The position numbers were made by a program, and so were the translations under genes. A model generated the notes under the pieces. That model was not told where the DNA came from and made no database searches. It saw nothing but the letters and a program-made list of their open reading frames with translations. A stretch of DNA of 64,000 nt from Candidatus Saccharimonadales bacterium (lineage in GTDB: Bacteria; Patescibacteriota; Saccharimonadia; Saccharimonadales; UBA10212): contig DASTXL010000001.1 of NCBI GenBank assembly GCA_035758565.1, positions 139,242-203,241 of the forward strand, given 5' to 3'. Position 1 is the stretch's first letter. Every line of letters begins with the position of its first letter. Below are positions 6,840-44,934 of the stretch, one piece after another.

Positions 6840-7097
6840 ATGAATACAGCAGCCCTAGTCTTACTAATAATTGTTAGTTCGGTTCTGTCCGTTTTTTTGG
6901 TTTTTCTGATCGTGGCCCTCGGCTACTTTATCAGCGTGCTTAAACAAGTAAAAAGAATTACGGCGCGCGCTGAGAGCGTGGCCGATACTGTAGAATCAGC
7001 AGCCAGTGCGTTTGAACGCGCCAGCTCGCCCATCGCGGTTATTAAATTAATCGGCAAGATCGTCGAACAGACGGCCGGCTTTAAAAAGAAAGGCTAG
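6840..7097 (+). CDS. Small membrane protein (DUF948-like)
   Basis: One N-terminal TM helix followed by a helical tail. Adjacent to a YtxH-like gene, as is common in Firmicutes. Confidence 0.55.
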   Translation: MNTAALVLLIIVSSVLSVFLVFLIVALGYFISVLKQVKRITARAESVADTVESAASAFERASSPIAVIKLIGKIVEQTAGFKKKG

Positions 7098-23987: not shown

Positions 23988-24386
23988 ATGGGCGAACCAC
24001 TGCGAATTGGTTCTGAAGACGAAGAGCCAGCCTCGTACCAAGTGCAAGACCCCCAGACGGGACTAAATTTTTATCGTTCTGTCAGTGGAGTAAACGGCGA
24101 AATCTCTGAAGACGCAGCTTCAAAAAGAGATTTTGACGACCAGGTCAATGCCGCCAAGTGTCGTACGCGAGCCCGCTGGCTCATGGTAATGGCCGACTAT
24201 GGCATTGAACCAAGGATGGCCAGCGAGCGCGAAGCTCTGGTGGATGCTTCTAAGCGTGGCTATAGGATGAACGGTTATGACCCAGAAAAGGCAGACTTAG
24301 TCGTGCATCCTCAAGAGGAGTATATTCGCTTGTTTGCCGGAAGCTTGGAAGCTATTGCTAAAAAATTAGACGGACGTCGAAAGTAA
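23988..24386 (+). CDS. Hypothetical protein (132 aa) in the position usually held by ylxR/infB
   Basis: ATG overlaps the nusA stop (TAAATG). No recognisable motif. Confidence 0.5.
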   Translation: MGEPLRIGSEDEEPASYQVQDPQTGLNFYRSVSGVNGEISEDAASKRDFDDQVNAAKCRTRARWLMVMADYGIEPRMASEREALVDASKRGYRMNGYDPEKADLVVHPQEEYIRLFAGSLEAIAKKLDGRRK

Positions 24387-24402
24387 AGACGCCAAGACGC
24401 AA

Positions 24403-24429
24403 TTAGCACTCTTGACTCGTGAGTGCTAA
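24403..24429. promoter_or_regulatory. CIRCE operator (HrcA-binding inverted repeat)
   Basis: TTAGCACTC-ttgactcgt-GAGTGCTAA is an exact match to the consensus TTAGCACTC-N9-GAGTGCTAA. The spacer carries a TTGACT -35-like hexamer. Confidence 0.88.
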
Positions 24430-24575
24430 TTTATGGTATTATTGGAGTACTGAATTAAAGCGATTCCGTTAAAGTCATTACAGCTAGCTTTAAGAAGTAA
24501 GAAATACAATAGCGGGTATAAGAACGATATAGAAAGGAGAAGTAACCAACAAACCCTATTGGTTACAAAAAATAG

Positions 24576-27071
24576 ATGATTCCAAACTCTCCAGACTTTC
24601 AAGAATTTTTAAGCCATTTAACTAATAATGCGTTGCACAGCTTAAAGCATGCTGACGCTATTGCCCGGGCCTCGGGCAGTGCTTATATTGGCACCGAACA
24701 TTTACTTTTGGGCGTGCTCGCTCAAGAGGGTTCAATGGCCTCTAAAATTTTGGAAAACCAGGGCATAACTCTGGATAGGGCACGTCTCGCCCTGAATCTT
24801 ACTCCTAAAACCTTAGTTATAAATATGGGCGGTAAGGGTTTGAGTGAGACTGCCAAGTTAACACTCAAAATGGCTTGGGAAATTGCCCAAGAGTTCAGTC
24901 AGGATTACTGCGGTACCGAACATATCCTCTACAGTATTTTGAGCCAAAAGAACGCCCGTGCTACCACGCTTTTGCGTGATATGAGCATTGATGTTGATCA
25001 ACTGTCTGCCGAGGTTGAACAATTCCTAAATCGCCAACAGTACGAGGGCGACCAAATGGCCGGCGCTGGCACTCGCCGCCGCGGCAAAAATGGCAAAAAG
25101 ACCGCTTTAGAGCATTTTGGCTCAGACCTAACCAAGCTCGCTCGCGACGGCAAACTCGATCCGGTAGTCGGCCGAGAAGCTCAAATCAAGCGCGTGATTA
25201 CTATTTTGAATCGCCGCACCAAAAACAATCCGGTACTGATTGGCGAGCCCGGCGTGGGCAAGACCGCTATTGTTGAAGGTCTGGCGCAGCGAGTCGTCAA
25301 CGAAGAAGTGCCTGACAGCCTACTGGACAAGCGTATTGTTACGCTTGATCTCGCTGGCATGATCGCCGGTACTAAATACCGTGGTGAATTTGAAGAGCGA
25401 CTCAAGAAAGTTATTGCAGAGCTCGAAGAAGACGCTAACACTATTGTTTTTATTGACGAACTGCATTTGATTGTCGGCGCTGGTGCCGCCGAAGGCAGTA
25501 TGGATGCCGGAAATATCTTAAAGCCAAGTTTGGCCCGGGGCAAAATCCAACTGATCGGTGCAACCACCACTGACGAATACGCCCGTTATGTAGAAAAGGA
25601 TGCTGCTCTAGAACGCCGATTCCAGCCGGTTCAGGTTCCAGAAACCAACATTCCAGAAACTATCGCCATCCTCAAAGGTCTTCGTGGCCATTACGAGGAA
25701 TATCATAATGTTAAAGTCAGCGACGAGGTTTTAGAGGACACTGTCCAATTTGCCAAACGCTATATTAATGACCGCTATATGCCCGACAAAGCCATTGACC
25801 TTTTGGACGAAACCGCTGCCTACCTGCGCGTTAACAAGGGTAAAACTCCACCACAGTTGCGCCAACTACAAAAAGAGCTAAAGCTCATCAATACCCGAAT
25901 TGAGGATGCTGTCGACAACGAAGACTACGAGAAAGCCGCTCAGCAGAAGCAAAAGGCCAGCCAGGTCAACGAAAAGATCAAGTCTTTAGAAGAGACCCTG
26001 CATGCCGGCAAGGCCATTACTTTAACTAGCGATGATGTGGCTGAGACCGTAGCCCGTATGACAGGCGTGCCGGTTACTAAAGTTATCAAGAGTGAGGCCA
26101 AGTACTTGATTAATCTTGAAAAGAATCTTGGCAAGTATGTCATTGGTCAGGACGAGGCGGTAGAAACTGTCGCCAAAGCAGTCCGCCGCAGCCGCTCAGG
26201 AATCTCTAGCGAAAAGCGTCCAATCGGCTCATTTATATTTCTTGGTCCAACCGGCGTTGGTAAGACTGAGCTTGCCCGCGTACTCGCCCGCGAGTTCTTT
26301 GGCAGCGAAGACGCTCTGGTTAAAATCGACATGAGCGAGTTCGGCGAACATCACAATGTTGCCCGTTTGGTGGGCGCGCCAGCCGGCTACATTGGCTACG
26401 ATGATGGTGGACAGCTAACTGATAAAATTCGCCGCCAGCCGTATAGCGTAGTCCTGTTCGATGAAATCGAAAAAGCTCATCCAGAAGTGTTCAACATGAT
26501 GCTGCAGATTTTGGAAGACGGAACACTATCGGATGCCAAGGGCCGCAAAATTGACTTCACTAATACGATCGTCATCATGACGAGCAATATTGGCGCCGAA
26601 AAGCTGCAAAAAGAAGCCAGCTTTGGTTTTGGCGCGGTTAAAGAAATTGATTTAGATAATTTAGACGAACTGCACAAGACCAACAAAGACAAAGTTTCCG
26701 ACGAGCTCAAGAAAATGATGCGCCCGGAACTATTGAACCGCATCGACAAAGTTGTTATCTTCCGTGCTCTAACTAAGAGAGACGCTCTTAGAATCTTGGA
26801 CCTGCAGCTTGACGATCTGCGTTCACGCTTGGTCAAAAAAGGTATTGGGCTGGAAGTCGACAAAACAGCCAAGGATTACTTGCTTGAACACGGTTACGAT
26901 GCTCACAATGGCGCCCGTCCGATGCGCCGCTTGCTACAAGAAACCCTAGAAGACGCCGTAGCTGCTGGTCTGCTGGACGAAAGCTATCATAAGGGCGACG
27001 TTGTTAAGGTAACCACTCACCAATCCAGAAATAAAACGCCCGAACTCGCTTACGCCGCTATCGCCGAATAG
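24576..27071 (+). CDS. clpC: ATP-dependent Clp protease ATP-binding subunit ClpC
   Basis: Two Clp_N repeats and two AAA+ modules ([15 protein letters not shown] and [15 protein letters not shown]). Confidence 0.95.
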
Positions 27072-27098: not shown

Positions 27099-28079
27099 AT
27101 GAAGCGGATACAAAAAGCTTTTAATGTCGTCTTGGCGCTTGCTTTGTTGTCTTTGCCATTTATTGGCTGGTGGCGGGCTCAGGCTATTGAAGATTGGTGG
27201 AAGTTGCGTGGCTACACGCCGCCGCCCAGCATAACGGAACTGGCTCAGCGCGATACAATGACGCCGCAGGCTACCCATGATTTTTATGTTAACCACCCCC
27301 AGTTGATTAACGGTGTCTCTAACTTCCGCCAGGATTGCCCCGAGAGCGAGCAGGCGATTGTTCTAGGATGTTACCATCCGGTGCAAAATGGCATTTTTGT
27401 TTATGTGGTTAACGACACTCGCTTAAATGGTGTCGAAGAGGTTACGGCCGCCCACGAAATGTTGCACGCCGCTTACGATCGCCTGTCTAGCGGCGACAAA
27501 AAGTACATCGATGGTCTGCTTGAAGATTACTACAACAAAGACCTGACCGACCAACGTATCAAAGATGAAATTAACGGCTACAAAAAGACCGAACCAAATG
27601 ACGTGGTGAACGAAATGCATTCGGTGTTTGGCACGGAAGCTTCGGATTTACCAGCACCGCTCGAGAATTATTATAAGCGTTACTTTAGTGATCGATCGGC
27701 GGTGGTGTCGCTAGCCGACAACTATCAAGAGGCCTTTACCACTCGAACTACCGAGCTAGATGCGTATAAAGTCAAGCTAGACGACCTAAAAGGTAAGATT
27801 ACATCCGAAGAGAATTCGCTGCAAAAACAGCTGAATCAAATTAACTCGGATCGTGCACGGCTAGACAGCATGGCTAACGGCGGTCAAACGGATGAATACA
27901 ACGCGGCTGTGCCCGGCTTTAATAACGAAGTAGACATTTATAACCAAGGTGTTAAACAACTTCAATCAGATATTAGCGAATACAACTCGCTGGTTAGCGA
28001 ATACAACTCTTTAGCCGGTGAGCTGCGTAGCTTGCAAGATTCGATCGACACCCGCCTGGCGCCTCAACCCGCTCAGTAA
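27099..28079 (+). CDS. Membrane-anchored HExxH protein with C-terminal coiled coil
   Basis: N-terminal TM helix, AAHEMLHAAY motif, and heptad-like repeats (SEYNSLVSEYNSLAGELRSL). Confidence 0.6.
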   Translation: MKRIQKAFNVVLALALLSLPFIGWWRAQAIEDWWKLRGYTPPPSITELAQRDTMTPQATHDFYVNHPQLINGVSNFRQDCPESEQAIVLGCYHPVQNGIFVYVVNDTRLNGVEEVTAAHEMLHAAYDRLSSGDKKYIDGLLEDYYNKDLTDQRIKDEINGYKKTEPNDVVNEMHSVFGTEASDLPAPLENYYKRYFSDRSAVVSLADNYQEAFTTRTTELDAYKVKLDDLKGKITSEENSLQKQLNQINSDRARLDSMANGGQTDEYNAAVPGFNNEVDIYNQGVKQLQSDISEYNSLVSEYNSLAGELRSLQDSIDTRLAPQPAQ

Positions 28080-28088
28080 CGCTTAAGC

Positions 28089-28973
28089 TTGCAATTATTC
28101 CTTGAAAAAGTGGAGAATACTGAGGTAATGGCCGAGCATTCCCCGCAAATTACCTATAACCTAGAAACCGACTCTCTGGAAATCAACAGCCAGCTTGATG
28201 AGGACATTAAAATTAGTGCCAGGCAGCAAATTATAGCCGAGGCGCTGGCTCGCGAACCGGGCGTAGAGGCCGAGGTCGAAAATGGCACCGTGAACACCAG
28301 AATAGAAGTTCTCAAACTAATGGCCGATGCCTTTAAAAATAAAAAAGACGCCGAGATCGCCTCGATAATCAATCGGATGGAATCATTGGTATTTGCCGAC
28401 CCGTTTAGTTCGGACCGCGTTATATCTCTTAGAGATTGGTTTGATCGGGCGGCCAAAGGCTATATTTTCCCTAGTTTTCAAAGATATATAAATGCCGGCA
28501 TTTCGGATGACGTGGCCAAAGAAACGCTAACTGCGATGGCTAGATCTTTTGGAAGTGAGCTAGAAAAAAGGGCAATAAGTGACTATAGCGGCTACTACGG
28601 CAAGCACACAACATGGTCTTTTGATCTGGGTTTGGCGCCAGCCAAGTTCGGCCTGGATAAGCTAGAAGAAACTCCTGAATTCTATGTAGAAACAACCGGC
28701 GAAGTGGCATGGAATAACCTAAAGCTAACCACTCTAGGGGATTGTGCTTGCTGGGGAGCCTTAGGCGAAGACAGAGGCCATATTCCGCTACGAAGTGATC
28801 GATTGCAGCTTTATCATCTGAATGCGCATAACTGGGATTACGCCAGGCAATCGCTGAGCATGGTTCTTGGGGTTGGCGTGTTGGCTCGGCACGCCGCGCA
28901 GTATGAGGGTCAAGAAGATATTTTCGCGGGCGTAGAGTGGACAGAGCCCCGCGAGATACCTAAAAGCTGGTAA
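28089..28973 (+). CDS. Hypothetical protein (294 aa)
   Basis: Long ORF with native codon usage. No recognisable motif. The ATG at 28128 is an alternative start. Confidence 0.55.
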   Translation: MQLFLEKVENTEVMAEHSPQITYNLETDSLEINSQLDEDIKISARQQIIAEALAREPGVEAEVENGTVNTRIEVLKLMADAFKNKKDAEIASIINRMESLVFADPFSSDRVISLRDWFDRAAKGYIFPSFQRYINAGISDDVAKETLTAMARSFGSELEKRAISDYSGYYGKHTTWSFDLGLAPAKFGLDKLEETPEFYVETTGEVAWNNLKLTTLGDCACWGALGEDRGHIPLRSDRLQLYHLNAHNWDYARQSLSMVLGVGVLARHAAQYEGQEDIFAGVEWTEPREIPKSW

Positions 28974-28992: not shown

Positions 28993-30339
28993 ATGGCAAA
29001 GAAAACACTGGGAGTTCGGTACGTTTGCAGCAATTGCGGGGCGGAATATTCAACTTGGACAGGTAAGTGCCAAAACTGTGGTGAATGGAATACTCTAACT
29101 GAACAAGTCGAGATTACCACGGCTACTGCCGGCGCCAGCGGCAATCAACTCAAAATCCAATCAGTTACGGCCGCGGCCGCCGACAAAATGACTCGAATCA
29201 AAACTGGCATCGAAGAAGTTGATACGGTTTTGGGCGGCGGCTTGGTTGCCGGTAGCGTTAATCTGGTAGCCGGCCAACCCGGCATTGGCAAAAGCACCTT
29301 ATTGCTGCAACTTGCTTATCTTGCGGCTGACAAAAACAAGGTTTTATATGTCAGCGGCGAAGAGTCAGCTCGCCAGGTGGCCTTGCGTGCTGAGCGTCTT
29401 GGCGCCACTCGACAATCTTTGCAGTTGGCGGTATCTACGGTGGCTAACGACATCGCGGCTACTATTTCCGGTGGCGAATTCGATCTGGTGGTTGTGGATT
29501 CTATCCAAGCAATAGCCGTCAACGAGATAAACTCCGCAGCCGGCAATATCAGCCAAATAACTAACAGCACTCAACTACTAACAGCCGCCGCCAAAGCCAC
29601 TAATACAGCTCTGGTCTTGGTTGGCCACGTTACCAAAGAAGGTTCGATCGCCGGACCAAAGGTACTGGAGCATATTGTCGATGTGGTCATGCAGCTCGAG
29701 GGGGATCGCTACGGCGGATTTAAAGTTTTGCGCGGAGTAAAGAACCGCTACGGCTCAACCAACGAAGCCGGTATTTTTGAAATGACAGATACGGGCCTAA
29801 AGTCGGTACCCAACCCATCAGCGGCTTTGCTAGCTGAGCGTCAAGTTAGCGATGGTTCAATAGTACTGGCTACTATGGAGGGCAGCCGGCCGTTATTAGT
29901 TGAAGTCCAAGCTTTGGTTAATCCGACAAGCTATGGTTATCCAAAGCGCACAGCTAGCGGTATAGACCTCAACCGCGTTAATTTATTAGTCGCCATGCTT
30001 GAACGCCGTACTAAATTAAGGCTCGCTGAACGTGATATTTATATAAACATTGTTGGCGGTATTCGCTTAACCGAACCAGCGGCCGATCTAGCGGTCTGCA
30101 TGGCGATCGCCAGCGCGGCTAAAGGGATGCAGCTCAAAAAGAATGCCGTAGTGTTTGGCGAAGTTGGTTTAAGTGGCGAGGTTCGCCACGTACCCTTCCT
30201 TGAAAAACGTTTGGCCGAAGCCAAAAAACTCGGTTTTGAAGCAGCTATCGGACCAAAAGTGCGCTCTGGCAAAAAACCGGCATTCTTAACGAGCGTCTCT
30301 GATATTCGCAGCGCTCTTAACAGTTTTTTAGAAAACTAG
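28993..30339 (+). CDS. radA: DNA repair protein RadA/Sms
   Basis: Zinc finger CSNCGAEYSTWTGKCQNCGEWNT, Walker A GQPGIGKST, KNRYGST motif, and a Lon-like C-terminus. Confidence 0.95.
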   Translation: MAKKTLGVRYVCSNCGAEYSTWTGKCQNCGEWNTLTEQVEITTATAGASGNQLKIQSVTAAAADKMTRIKTGIEEVDTVLGGGLVAGSVNLVAGQPGIGKSTLLLQLAYLAADKNKVLYVSGEESARQVALRAERLGATRQSLQLAVSTVANDIAATISGGEFDLVVVDSIQAIAVNEINSAAGNISQITNSTQLLTAAAKATNTALVLVGHVTKEGSIAGPKVLEHIVDVVMQLEGDRYGGFKVLRGVKNRYGSTNEAGIFEMTDTGLKSVPNPSAALLAERQVSDGSIVLATMEGSRPLLVEVQALVNPTSYGYPKRTASGIDLNRVNLLVAMLERRTKLRLAERDIYINIVGGIRLTEPAADLAVCMAIASAAKGMQLKKNAVVFGEVGLSGEVRHVPFLEKRLAEAKKLGFEAAIGPKVRSGKKPAFLTSVSDIRSALNSFLEN

Positions 30340-42799: not shown

Positions 42800-44080
42800 A
42801 TGCAAATAACCCGTACAGATATATCACCAACCAAAATAAACCTGAACATCAAAGCTAGCGCTGACGAGCTCGAGCCTATTAAAAAGCACGTTTTAAGTAG
42901 TCATTTTTCAAACGTTAAGGTGCCGGGTTTTCGTGCCGGCAAGGCCCCAACTCATCTTATAGAAAAAAACATTAACCAGCAGCTGTTCCTCGATGAATTC
43001 ATGGAGCACGCCATCAACGAGCTTTATCGCCGTGCGGTCGAAGATCAAAAGTTCCGCCCGGTTGGCCAGCCCGAGATTCAGCTCAAAAAATTCGTGCCTT
43101 ATACCGATTTAGAGTTTGAGACCACCCAAGAAGTGATCGGCAAAGTAACCCTGCCAAATTATAAAACCATCAAGTTGGCTAAGAATAAGGCCAGCGTAAC
43201 TGCTAAAGACGTTGACGAAGTTATCAAATCGCTGCAAGGTCGCATGGCCGAGCGCACCGAAGTTGCCCGTCCGGCAAAAGATGGCGATGAGGTTACGATT
43301 GATTTTGCCGGCAAAGACGAGAGTGGCGAACCGGTTGCCGGTGCCGACGGCAAAGACTATCCGCTGGTTTTGGGCAGCAAAACCTTTATTCCCGGTTTTG
43401 AAGACAATCTAATCGGTATTAAAACTGGCGACTCCAAAGAATTCCAGGTGACATTTCCGGCCGATTATGGCGCCAAAGAACTACAAAGTAAAAAAGTTAC
43501 TTTTTCTGTCACGGCCAAGAAAATCAGCGACCTGGTCGAGCCTAAAATCGATGATGAATTCGCCGCCAAAGCCGGACCATTCAAGACTCTGGCCGAGCTT
43601 AAGGCGGATGTTAAAAAGCAGCTGACCAGCGAGCGCGAATGGCAGGTCGAACAAGATTACCAGAATGAACTTATTAAAAAGATCGCCGCCAAAGCCAAAG
43701 TTGAAGTTCCAGAAAGCCTGGTTGAAACAGAGTTGCAGCGCATGGAAGACGAAGAGCGTCGAAACTTAGCCTACCGTGGCCAAACCTGGCAAGAACACCT
43801 CAAAGCTGAAGGCGTGACTGAAGAAGAGCACCGTGATCGTCTCAAGCCCGACGCTGCAGAAAGAGTCAAGGCTGGACTGGTTTTGAGCGAAATTTCCGAA
43901 GCCGAAAAGATTGACGTCACGGCCGAAGAGTTGGCGGACCGCATTCAGATCTTAAAGTCTCAGTACCAGGATCCAACCATGCAAGCCGAGCTGGATAAGC
44001 CGGAGAGCCGCCAGGATATCGCCAATCGTCTGCTAACCGAAAAAACTATCCTGAAACTCGTCGACTACGCCACGTCGTAG
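42800..44080 (+). CDS. tig: Trigger factor
   Basis: N-terminal ribosome-binding region (GFRAGKAP), an FKBP-like domain, and a C-terminal arm. Confidence 0.9.
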   Translation: MQITRTDISPTKINLNIKASADELEPIKKHVLSSHFSNVKVPGFRAGKAPTHLIEKNINQQLFLDEFMEHAINELYRRAVEDQKFRPVGQPEIQLKKFVPYTDLEFETTQEVIGKVTLPNYKTIKLAKNKASVTAKDVDEVIKSLQGRMAERTEVARPAKDGDEVTIDFAGKDESGEPVAGADGKDYPLVLGSKTFIPGFEDNLIGIKTGDSKEFQVTFPADYGAKELQSKKVTFSVTAKKISDLVEPKIDDEFAAKAGPFKTLAELKADVKKQLTSEREWQVEQDYQNELIKKIAAKAKVEVPESLVETELQRMEDEERRNLAYRGQTWQEHLKAEGVTEEEHRDRLKPDAAERVKAGLVLSEISEAEKIDVTAEELADRIQILKSQYQDPTMQAELDKPESRQDIANRLLTEKTILKLVDYATS

Positions 44081-44102
44081 CCATCATATTTAATAAAATA
44101 GA

Positions 44103-44129
44103 TTAGCACTCTTGACCCGTGAGTGCTAA
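44103..44129. promoter_or_regulatory. CIRCE operator (second copy)
   Basis: TTAGCACTC-ttgacccgt-GAGTGCTAA is an exact consensus match. It differs from the clpC copy by 1 nt in the spacer. Confidence 0.88.
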
Positions 44130-44147
44130 TTTTAGTATCATATAAGC

Positions 44148-44303
44148 ATGGCTTTGCCTAAATATCCTCGCCCAACTAAAAAGACAGACGATTACGGACC
44201 GTCCGAGCAAACCAGAGAAGAGATTAAGCAAGGAAAAAGGCAGCGCAATCGAAGACTGATAATAAACTTTTTTATGAATTTGTTTGTAAATTCAGGGAGG
44301 TAA
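44148..44303 (+). CDS. Possible 51-aa basic small ORF between CIRCE and clpP
   Basis: ATG lies 6 nt after TATCAT (44136-44141). The stop lies 1 nt before the clpP ATG. Below the ORF-track threshold, with no homology evidence. Confidence 0.3.
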
Positions 44304-44304
44304 A

Positions 44305-44934
44305 ATGAGTAACCCGTCCAACCAAATTTTAGTCCCGACTGTTATCGAGCAAGAAGGCCGCGTGGAGCGCGCTTATGATATTTACAGTCGCTTGCTTCGT
44401 GACCGGATCATCTTCTTGGGCGACGACGTCAACGAACACACAGCCAATCTCGTGGTTGCTCAAATGCTATTTCTTGAAAACCAAGATCCCGATAAGGACA
44501 TTATTCTTTATATAAATAGCCCAGGCGGGAGTGTGTACGACGCGATGGCTATTTACGACACCATGCAGTATGTGAAGAGTGATATTCAAACAGTCGGTAT
44601 TGGTGTTCAGGCCAGCGCGGCGGCGTTTTTGCTAAGCTCTGGCACCAAAGGCAAACGATTCTTATTACCGCACGCAACTGTAATGATTCACCAGCCGTCC
44701 AGCGGGACTCGCGGTAAGGTTACCGACCAAGAAATTGATCTGCGTGAAGCTTTGCGCGTCAAGAAAATGATGGAAGAAATCATGGCTCGTAACACCGGTC
44801 GGAACCCTAAAAAGGTTCACGAAGACATGGAGCGCGACTTCTGGATGACCGCCGAAGACGCCAAAAAGTACGGCTTAGTTGACGAAATCATTGATACCCG
44901 CAAGCTGGCCGACTCCATTCCCAAAGCAGCCTAG
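44305..44934 (+). CDS. clpP: ATP-dependent Clp protease proteolytic subunit
   Basis: [40 protein letters not shown] catalytic Ser/His context. SD GGGAGG. Confidence 0.95.

Follow-up and report, generated by a model that had tools for sequence, protein, structure and literature searches.

The window analyzed here, a stretch of DNA of 64,000 nucleotides (64 kb) with ~49% G+C, comes from Candidatus Saccharimonadales, a member of the Saccharibacteria (TM7) within the Patescibacteria (CPR), and is 68-76% identical to the DNA of other Candidatus Saccharimonadales MAGs. The genes in the window include nusA, clpC, radA, a gene for a class A PBP, tig, clpP, rpoBC, a gene for a type IV pilus ATPase, and gatAB; no hrcA, groES/EL or dnaK gene was found within these 64 kb. 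Two of the genes, clpC and clpP, are each preceded by a perfect copy of the CIRCE element, the operator of the heat-shock repressor HrcA, and these two sites are the subject of the present analysis.

The clpC and clpP loci

The clpC gene (24576..27071, + strand) encodes an 831-aa AAA+ unfoldase in which the Pfam domains Clp_N, AAA, AAA_lid_9, AAA_2 and ClpB_D2-small were detected, and for which the best matches among the solved structures, extending from end to end, are the ClpC proteins of S. aureus and B. subtilis and ClpC1 of M. tuberculosis (E about 1e-236 to 1e-224). The protein contains the elements that are characteristic of the ClpC type, namely, two Clp_N repeats, two AAA+ modules, a short UVR-like middle domain and a ClpP-docking-type loop, in which the FGF tripeptide of the segment EASFGFGAV is predicted to mediate the docking of ClpP.

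Immediately downstream, orf326 (27099..28079, + strand) codes for a protein of 326 aa that has a hydrophobic segment at the N-terminus, a HEMLH sequence of the HExxH type and a coiled-coil C-terminus; a search for a convincing Pfam family yielded none, and we describe the product as a putative HExxH membrane protein with a metalloprotease-like motif. Between orf326 and radA/sms (28993..30339, + strand) lies a lineage-specific ORF of 294 aa (28089..28973, + strand) that has neither a Pfam match nor a homologue in any of the fetched relatives. The gaps separating these genes are 9-27 nt (27 nt between clpC and orf326), and a terminator scan detected no + strand terminator among them. A homologue of orf326 follows clpC in 61 of the 88 related loci, and in 47 of the 88, radA follows the two. 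Thus arranged, clpC, orf326, the lineage-specific ORF and radA, the last gene, probably comprise a four-gene operon, with orf326 probably co-transcribed with clpC.

On the other side of clpC, the slot between nusA and clpC is filled by a 132-aa ORF (23988-24386) for which neither a Pfam match nor, among the fetched relatives, a homologue was detected; in the related locus L214, the same slot is occupied by hrcA-grpE, and in L103, by hrcA.

The clpP gene (44305..44934, + strand), with a GGGAGG sequence just upstream, encodes a 209-aa protein with a Pfam match to CLP_protease (E = 1e-77) that is identical to the NCBI entry HEU5004651.1. Upstream of clpP lies the trigger factor gene (42800-44080).

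Two perfect CIRCE operators in the window

CIRCE operator 1 (24403..24429, no strand assigned) reads TTAGCACTC-TTGACTCGT-GAGTGCTAA, and CIRCE operator 2 (44103..44129, no strand assigned) reads TTAGCACTC-TTGACCCGT-GAGTGCTAA, so that the two differ by a single base of the spacer. Both show the 9-bp inverted repeat TTAGCACTC-N9-GAGTGCTAA that characterizes HrcA operators, and both occupy the other hallmark of such operators, a conserved position at the promoters of proteostasis genes, here clpC and clpP. A search of the entire window that allowed up to 3 mismatches retrieved exactly these two sites, both without a mismatch, and none of 100 dinucleotide-preserving shuffles of the window contained a match. 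Operator 1 starts 17 nt after the stop codon of the upstream ORF and ends 146 nt before the ATG of clpC (24576); operator 2, located between the trigger factor gene and clpP, starts 23 nt after the trigger factor stop codon. A preliminary description of this DNA, made from the letters alone, had reported an exact-consensus CIRCE at 24403-24429, about 150 nt 5' of clpC, with a TTGACT -35-like hexamer within its spacer and a near-identical copy before clpP at 44103-44129, and every one of these statements was borne out, the hexamer being found at 24412-24417. Beyond ~3 bases, the sequences flanking the two copies show no relationship, so the possibility that the copies originate from a repeat or a mobile element was rejected.

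Predicted promoters built around the operators

The TTGACT hexamer in the spacer of operator 1 (24412..24417, + strand) is identified as -35-like from its sequence and from its conservation in the clade, and is followed by an extended -10 element of clpC, TGgTATTAT (24434..24442, + strand), the hexamer of which, TATTAT (24437-24442), is 19 nt past the -35. The clpP promoter (44112..44141, + strand) consists of TTGACC (44112-44117) and TATCAT (44136-44141) separated by an 18-nt spacer, and matches 10 of the 12 consensus positions of a sigma-70-type promoter. At both promoters in the window, which are of the sigma-70 type, the -10 hexamer starts 7-8 nt 3' of the right arm of CIRCE. With the -35 inside the spacer and the -10 after the right arm, a repressor bound to the operator would occlude RNA polymerase. 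The start of clpC transcription is predicted near 24449; since CIRCE is 5' of the predicted start, it would act as DNA and would be outside the clp mRNAs that originate from these promoters.

The same geometry is recognizable throughout the clade. The spacer of the CIRCE upstream of clpC contains TTGAC or TTGCA in 57 of 58 unique sites, and TGnTAnnnT begins 1-4 nt past CIRCE in 46 of the 58, including 43 in which the distance is exactly 4 nt, as it is in the window. In 13 of the clade clpC sites, TTGAC occupies spacer positions 5-9 instead of 1-5, with no accompanying shift of the -10. The -35/-10 spacing of 19 nt at clpC in the window is long and TTGAC is mobile whereas the -10 is fixed, hence the role of TTGAC at clpC is less certain, and the extended -10 is probably the dominant promoter element there. 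Across the sites detected by the motif scan described below, a TATAAT-like -10 hexamer at 17 nt is present in 43 of 72 Saccharibacterial sites among the matches listed.

Several additional features of these promoters were observed. The two TTGAC registers at clpC (e.g., L129, L131, L133, L141, L147 and L168) give a spacing of either 19 or 15 nt from the fixed -10, and at clpP of the relatives (L201-L212), TTGAC is in the 5-9 register, which corresponds to the ideal spacing of 17 nt. Within CIRCE itself, positions 3 and 25 show paired changes (A/T in 25 sites, G/T in 17, G/C in 12 and A/C in 4), an association that is weak and confounded by relatedness. In many relatives, namely, Nanosyncoccus and gut/oral Saccharibacteria (L005, L017, L057, L118) and L201-L212, the ATG of clpC or clpP is located just 6-8 nt past the -10, which implies that these heat-shock genes are transcribed into leaderless mRNAs. 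In the annotation of Saccharibacterial genomes, CIRCE is a reliable guide to promoters and gene starts.

The clpP locus of the window departs from this compact organization: the distance from CIRCE to clpP is 175 nt (44130-44304) in the window vs 21-23 nt in six relatives, so that a second, unregulated promoter nearer to clpP is conceivable. The 175-nt stretch contains an ORF for a basic 51-aa protein (44148..44303, + strand) whose reality is uncertain and for which no homologue was found in any fetched locus. The ATG of this ORF is 7 nt past the -10, i.e. in the leaderless position, and its TAA stop is located 1 nt before the ATG of clpP, which suggests translational coupling.

Conservation across Saccharibacteria

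A scan for the motif TTAGCACTC-TTGAC-N4-GAGTGCTAA, with one genome per GTDB species, detected at least 120 loci, and among the matches listed, these belong mostly to Saccharibacteria. For each site, the first long ORF downstream was identified, in the direction set by TTGAC, and the products were clustered. Among the matches listed, the genes downstream of the Saccharibacterial sites encode DnaK (27), ClpC (24), HrcA (10), ClpP (8), Hsp20 (3) and ClpB (1), with CIRCE directly upstream of clpP in 8 GTDB species. Every readable downstream gene in the Saccharibacterial loci is a proteostasis gene in the orientation set by TTGAC; the few remaining sites are too near the end of the locus.

Because such a scan selects for the motif, loci chosen by homology were tested as well. 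A metagenome scan with the window ClpC, restricted to sequences with an intact N-terminus and an identity of 62% or more, produced 66 loci, and in 64 of these, a CIRCE with at most 3 mismatches is located 21-197 nt upstream of clpC. The two other loci include just 87 and 127 nt of upstream DNA, too little to judge. In the relatives of Nanosynbacter lyticus TM7x within the data set, clpC is preceded by CIRCE at a distance of ~20-30 nt. Among distant ClpC/ClpB-like genes (42-48% identity), one of six has a CIRCE. The ClpP sample consisted of six relatives with 82-91% identity that were retrieved by a protein search, and in every one of the six, the distance from CIRCE to the ATG of clpP is 21-23 nt. 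When the regions 5' of clpC from 12 genomes are aligned, the sole invariant block consists of CIRCE together with TGnTATnAT. On the evidence of these comparisons, the presence of CIRCE at clpC and clpP is the norm across the phylum rather than a peculiarity of this genome, and HrcA control of ClpCP is well supported as a phylum-wide Saccharibacterial trait.

Two further observations were made on the distribution of CIRCE copies. Many Saccharibacterial dnaK promoters contain two copies ~45 nt apart (e.g., at 6965 and 7010 in L008, and in L022, L095, L112, L011 and L078), one of which lies within the promoter and has TTGAC as part of its spacer, and the second, slightly degenerate, is located just past the -10; the clp promoters of the window have one CIRCE each, in contrast to these tandem copies. 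Outside Saccharibacteria, a CIRCE with TTGAC in the spacer precedes ClpC/ClpB-type genes in a Fervidobacterium, Thermotogota MAG (L004) and in other Patescibacteria (L006, L044 and L111).

The repressor HrcA in the lineage

The canonical HrcA consists of ~340 aa, in contrast to the HrcA proteins of Saccharibacteria and other Patescibacteria (L079, L103, L213, L214 and others), which are a short form of 235-246 aa (about 236 aa). The winged-helix domain of the short form matches residues 16-96 of T. maritima HrcA (1STZ) with E = 4e-16, and the C-terminal part of the Pfam HrcA family is retained as well, with ~100 residues of the canonical protein missing; at least 8000 short HrcA proteins are present in public data. 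All 23 Saccharibacterial hrcA genes in the fetched loci have a CIRCE of their own, which by its placement is the classic autoregulatory arrangement. Two relatives combine the repressor gene and its target in one locus. L214 shares with the window the synteny CAP, T2SSE, L19 ... nusA ... clpC, radA, PBP, tyrS, methyltransferase, recG. Its hrcA-grpE pair fills precisely the slot between nusA and clpC, and separate CIRCE copies are located upstream of hrcA and of clpC; in L103, where the synteny is like that of the window, hrcA is located between nusA and clpC, and each of hrcA and clpC is preceded by a CIRCE. A search with the L103 HrcA as the query placed no hrcA on the source contig of the window among the best 120 of at least 8000 matches. 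The literature that we searched contained no studies of HrcA in Saccharibacteria, Patescibacteria or CPR, and no HrcA binding or expression data for any Saccharibacterium.

Probable control of the clp genes by HrcA rather than CtsR

In Actinobacteria, clpC and clpP have a dedicated transcriptional regulator, ClgR, that controls them under proteotoxic stress. An equivalent dedicated role in Firmicutes is described for CtsR (PMC3842655). Both are functional analogues of the arrangement reported here, with regulators and operators that are unrelated to HrcA and CIRCE. In Bacillus, ctsR-mcsA-mcsB precede clpC, in contrast to the window, where nusA and the 132-aa ORF are found, and to the hrcA of L103 and the hrcA-grpE of L214 in the corresponding location. 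Neither of the two neighbours of clpC in the window belongs to the CtsR family, and no ctsR, mcsA or mcsB gene was found upstream of clpC. The CtsR box (A/GGTCAAA-NAN-A/GGTCAAA, with up to 3 mismatches) was found neither in 24200-24575 nor in 44080-44305; the 11 matches in the window, barely more than the 5.9 expected, are all away from the clp promoters. The candidate reading in which CtsR controls these promoters was rejected on the absence of a CtsR box at either of them. With both the box and the ctsR gene absent at the clp loci of the window, HrcA appears to act alone on the clp genes, without a CtsR co-regulator.

The preliminary description had taken the CtsR regulation of clpC in Firmicutes as the baseline and, on this basis, had proposed a rewired heat-shock regulon in which HrcA governs the Clp machinery. 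For an organism outside the Firmicutes, CtsR is not the appropriate baseline, and whether the regulon is 'rewired' becomes a matter of viewpoint. The control of Clp by HrcA has gained support, from the CIRCE copies at nearly all clpC loci and at all of the sampled clpP relatives, from the absence of the CtsR box, and from the location of hrcA behind CIRCE in the relatives; by contrast, the 'rewired' framing is not supported for an arrangement that is the norm in its phylum and has precedents for the control of AAA+ proteins by HrcA.

In Streptococcus salivarius, clpP is subject to dual control by CtsR and HrcA (Chastanet and Msadek 2003, as cited in PMC3842655); the CIRCE/HrcA input is shared with the window whereas the CtsR co-regulator is not, there being no CtsR box or gene at the window loci. 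In Mollicutes, HrcA/CIRCE is described as controlling clpB and lon (PMC5138195, PMC7737663), and there are several similarities to Saccharibacteria: in Mycoplasma pneumoniae, M. gallisepticum and Spiroplasma, genomes are reduced, HrcA is the main stress regulator, AAA+ chaperones or proteases are under CIRCE, and some promoters have tandem CIRCE copies, like those of Saccharibacterial dnaK. The arrangement tig-CIRCE-lon reported for M. pneumoniae parallels the tig-CIRCE-clpP of the window (PMC5138195, PMC7737663). The differences are that Lon or ClpB, rather than ClpCP, is controlled in Mollicutes, that these belong to another phylum, and that the M. pneumoniae regulon includes groESL, which was not seen in the Saccharibacterial set.

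A comparison with the canonical CIRCE/HrcA system shows both differences and shared features. In B. subtilis, CIRCE is located at or downstream of the transcription start; the Saccharibacterial operator, in contrast, contains the -35 and is predicted to be untranscribed. The Saccharibacterial targets also differ from the canonical ones in that they include clpC and clpP, and in that no groESL was seen behind CIRCE. The features in common are the operator, TTAGCACTC-N9-GAGTGCTAA, which is identical (PMC545781), the winged-helix HrcA, the autoregulation of hrcA and the presence of dnaK in the regulon.

Interpretation and alternatives

It appears very probable that both sites in the window are functional HrcA operators integrated in the core promoters that drive clpP and the clpC operon. 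Under this mechanism, a dimer of HrcA occupying both arms of CIRCE would cover approximately -46 to -20, over the -35 region, and would block RNA polymerase, so that the clpC operon and clpP would be repressed. Upon heat or proteotoxic stress, HrcA would be expected to lose its DNA-binding activity, with the ensuing derepression of the ClpC unfoldase and the ClpP peptidase together with dnaK, hsp20, clpB and hrcA.

The most serious rival to the operator reading is that the palindromes are mainly RNA hairpins, that is, intrinsic terminators or stability elements for orf132/nusA and for tig; the two roles could coexist. Each CIRCE indeed starts 17-23 nt past the stop codon of the preceding gene, with TTTAT or TTTTAG on its 3' side, and, if transcribed, would form a hairpin of 11-12 bp with a free energy of -14.3 or -15.2 kcal/mol (z-scores of -3.5 and -5.1); furthermore, the flanks of Saccharibacterial sites are enriched in A upstream and T downstream. 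However, the U tract comprises just 3-4 residues, and the terminator scan called neither site. The exact 18 bases of the arms, which a terminator would not need, are kept in dozens of species before different genes, the identical sequence precedes hrcA, dnaK and hsp20 regardless of the upstream neighbour, and conservation extends from the palindrome to the directional TTGAC and the -10. We accordingly regard the hairpin explanation as improbable, and a terminator or hairpin role as a secondary function at most.

Somewhat less plausible still is the involvement of a regulator other than HrcA, or of an additional factor that, like CtsR or ClgR, would be specific for clp and would work alongside HrcA. 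This possibility draws on the fact that the hrcA gene of the window genome was not located, either in the 64-kb window or among the best 120 HrcA matches, on the lack of ~100 canonical residues in the Saccharibacterial HrcA, and on a conserved block in the clpC leader, GTAAAAnnnnTTACAGC...TAAG, which is found in ~28 relatives and might be a second control element. Against it, the operator matches the HrcA consensus exactly, the DNA-binding domain of HrcA is well conserved, the same site is present at hrcA in 23 of 23 cases, and the CtsR box is absent from the clp promoters; the leader block, for its part, has no Rfam match, consensus fold or consistent stem. Finally, chance or relic palindromes without a present function can be effectively dismissed, their probability being negligible in view of the complete lack of matches in shuffled sequence and of the conservation of position and orientation across the phylum.

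As for the operator reading itself, it involves a known regulator and a canonical operator extended to new targets in a new lineage, and no new mechanism. With a textbook mechanism, what is gained is breadth and not a new principle. In Saccharibacteria and other CPR, genomes are very small, transcription factors are few, and hardly any regulon is known to have been defined by experiment; the present analysis offers a phylum-wide regulon prediction in which HrcA/CIRCE would preside over ClpCP, DnaK, the small heat-shock proteins and HrcA itself. Mollicutes and Saccharibacteria, unrelated lineages with reduced genomes, would then have converged on placing AAA+ proteases under HrcA. The control of Clp ATPases by HrcA may also be more widespread, or older, than the phylum Saccharibacteria.

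GroESL and the scope of the regulon

In other bacteria, GroESL is described as the factor that keeps HrcA active. In the preliminary description, the question was raised whether dnaK and groEL also carry CIRCE; for dnaK, this is the case in the relatives, but a CIRCE-associated groESL was not observed in Saccharibacteria. Among the matches listed, which represent one spacer type, none of the 77 Saccharibacterial TTGAC-type CIRCE sites is followed by groES/groEL, and no GroEL was found in any fetched Saccharibacterial locus (L001-L214). In a comparative study, groESL is given as the sole constant member of HrcA regulons (PMC545781), and according to a supplementary data set in which the class is unstated, both groEL and groES are missing in 42 of 505 CPR genomes (PMC12641178 supplement).

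A far-reaching extension, which we put forward only tentatively and consider on the whole doubtful, is that a single master regulator, the truncated ~236-aa HrcA, governs the entire proteostasis network of Saccharibacteria (DnaK/GrpE/DnaJ, ClpC, ClpP, ClpB, sHsp and HrcA itself), acting via operators with the -35 in the spacer, with GroESL either not belonging to this regulon or missing from the class. Should this be the case, HrcA would need to sense stress either unaided or via the proteins that it controls (DnaK or ClpCP), rather than by titration of GroE. The question raised is how HrcA senses stress if GroESL is outside the circuit.

The leader of clpC

The block GTAAAAnnnnTTACAGC...(C)TTAAG in the 5' leader of clpC, located at 24466-24496 in the window, is conserved in ~28 relatives (e.g., L146, L189, L123, L131, L137 and L169), and the complementary stretches that flank it differ between relatives. 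At gathering thresholds, Rfam identified one tRNA only in the window, and nothing was retrieved in 24380-24620 at E up to 10. The clpC leader of the window folds no better than shuffled sequences (z = 0.0), RNAalifold applied to 14 clpC leaders predicted no consensus pairs, and an ad hoc stem search in the clpC leaders yielded two incompatible classes of stems with marginal p-values. A structured RNA element in the leader is not claimed here, given the lack of an Rfam match and a consensus, the z-score and the inconsistency of the stems. Closer to the gene (region 24536-24578), an AGGAG sequence is located 35 nt 5' of the clpC ATG, and an 8-bp hairpin, GTAACCAA...TTGGTTAC (24542-24566), which is not conserved in relatives, lies between the two and could bring AGGAG and the ATG closer together.
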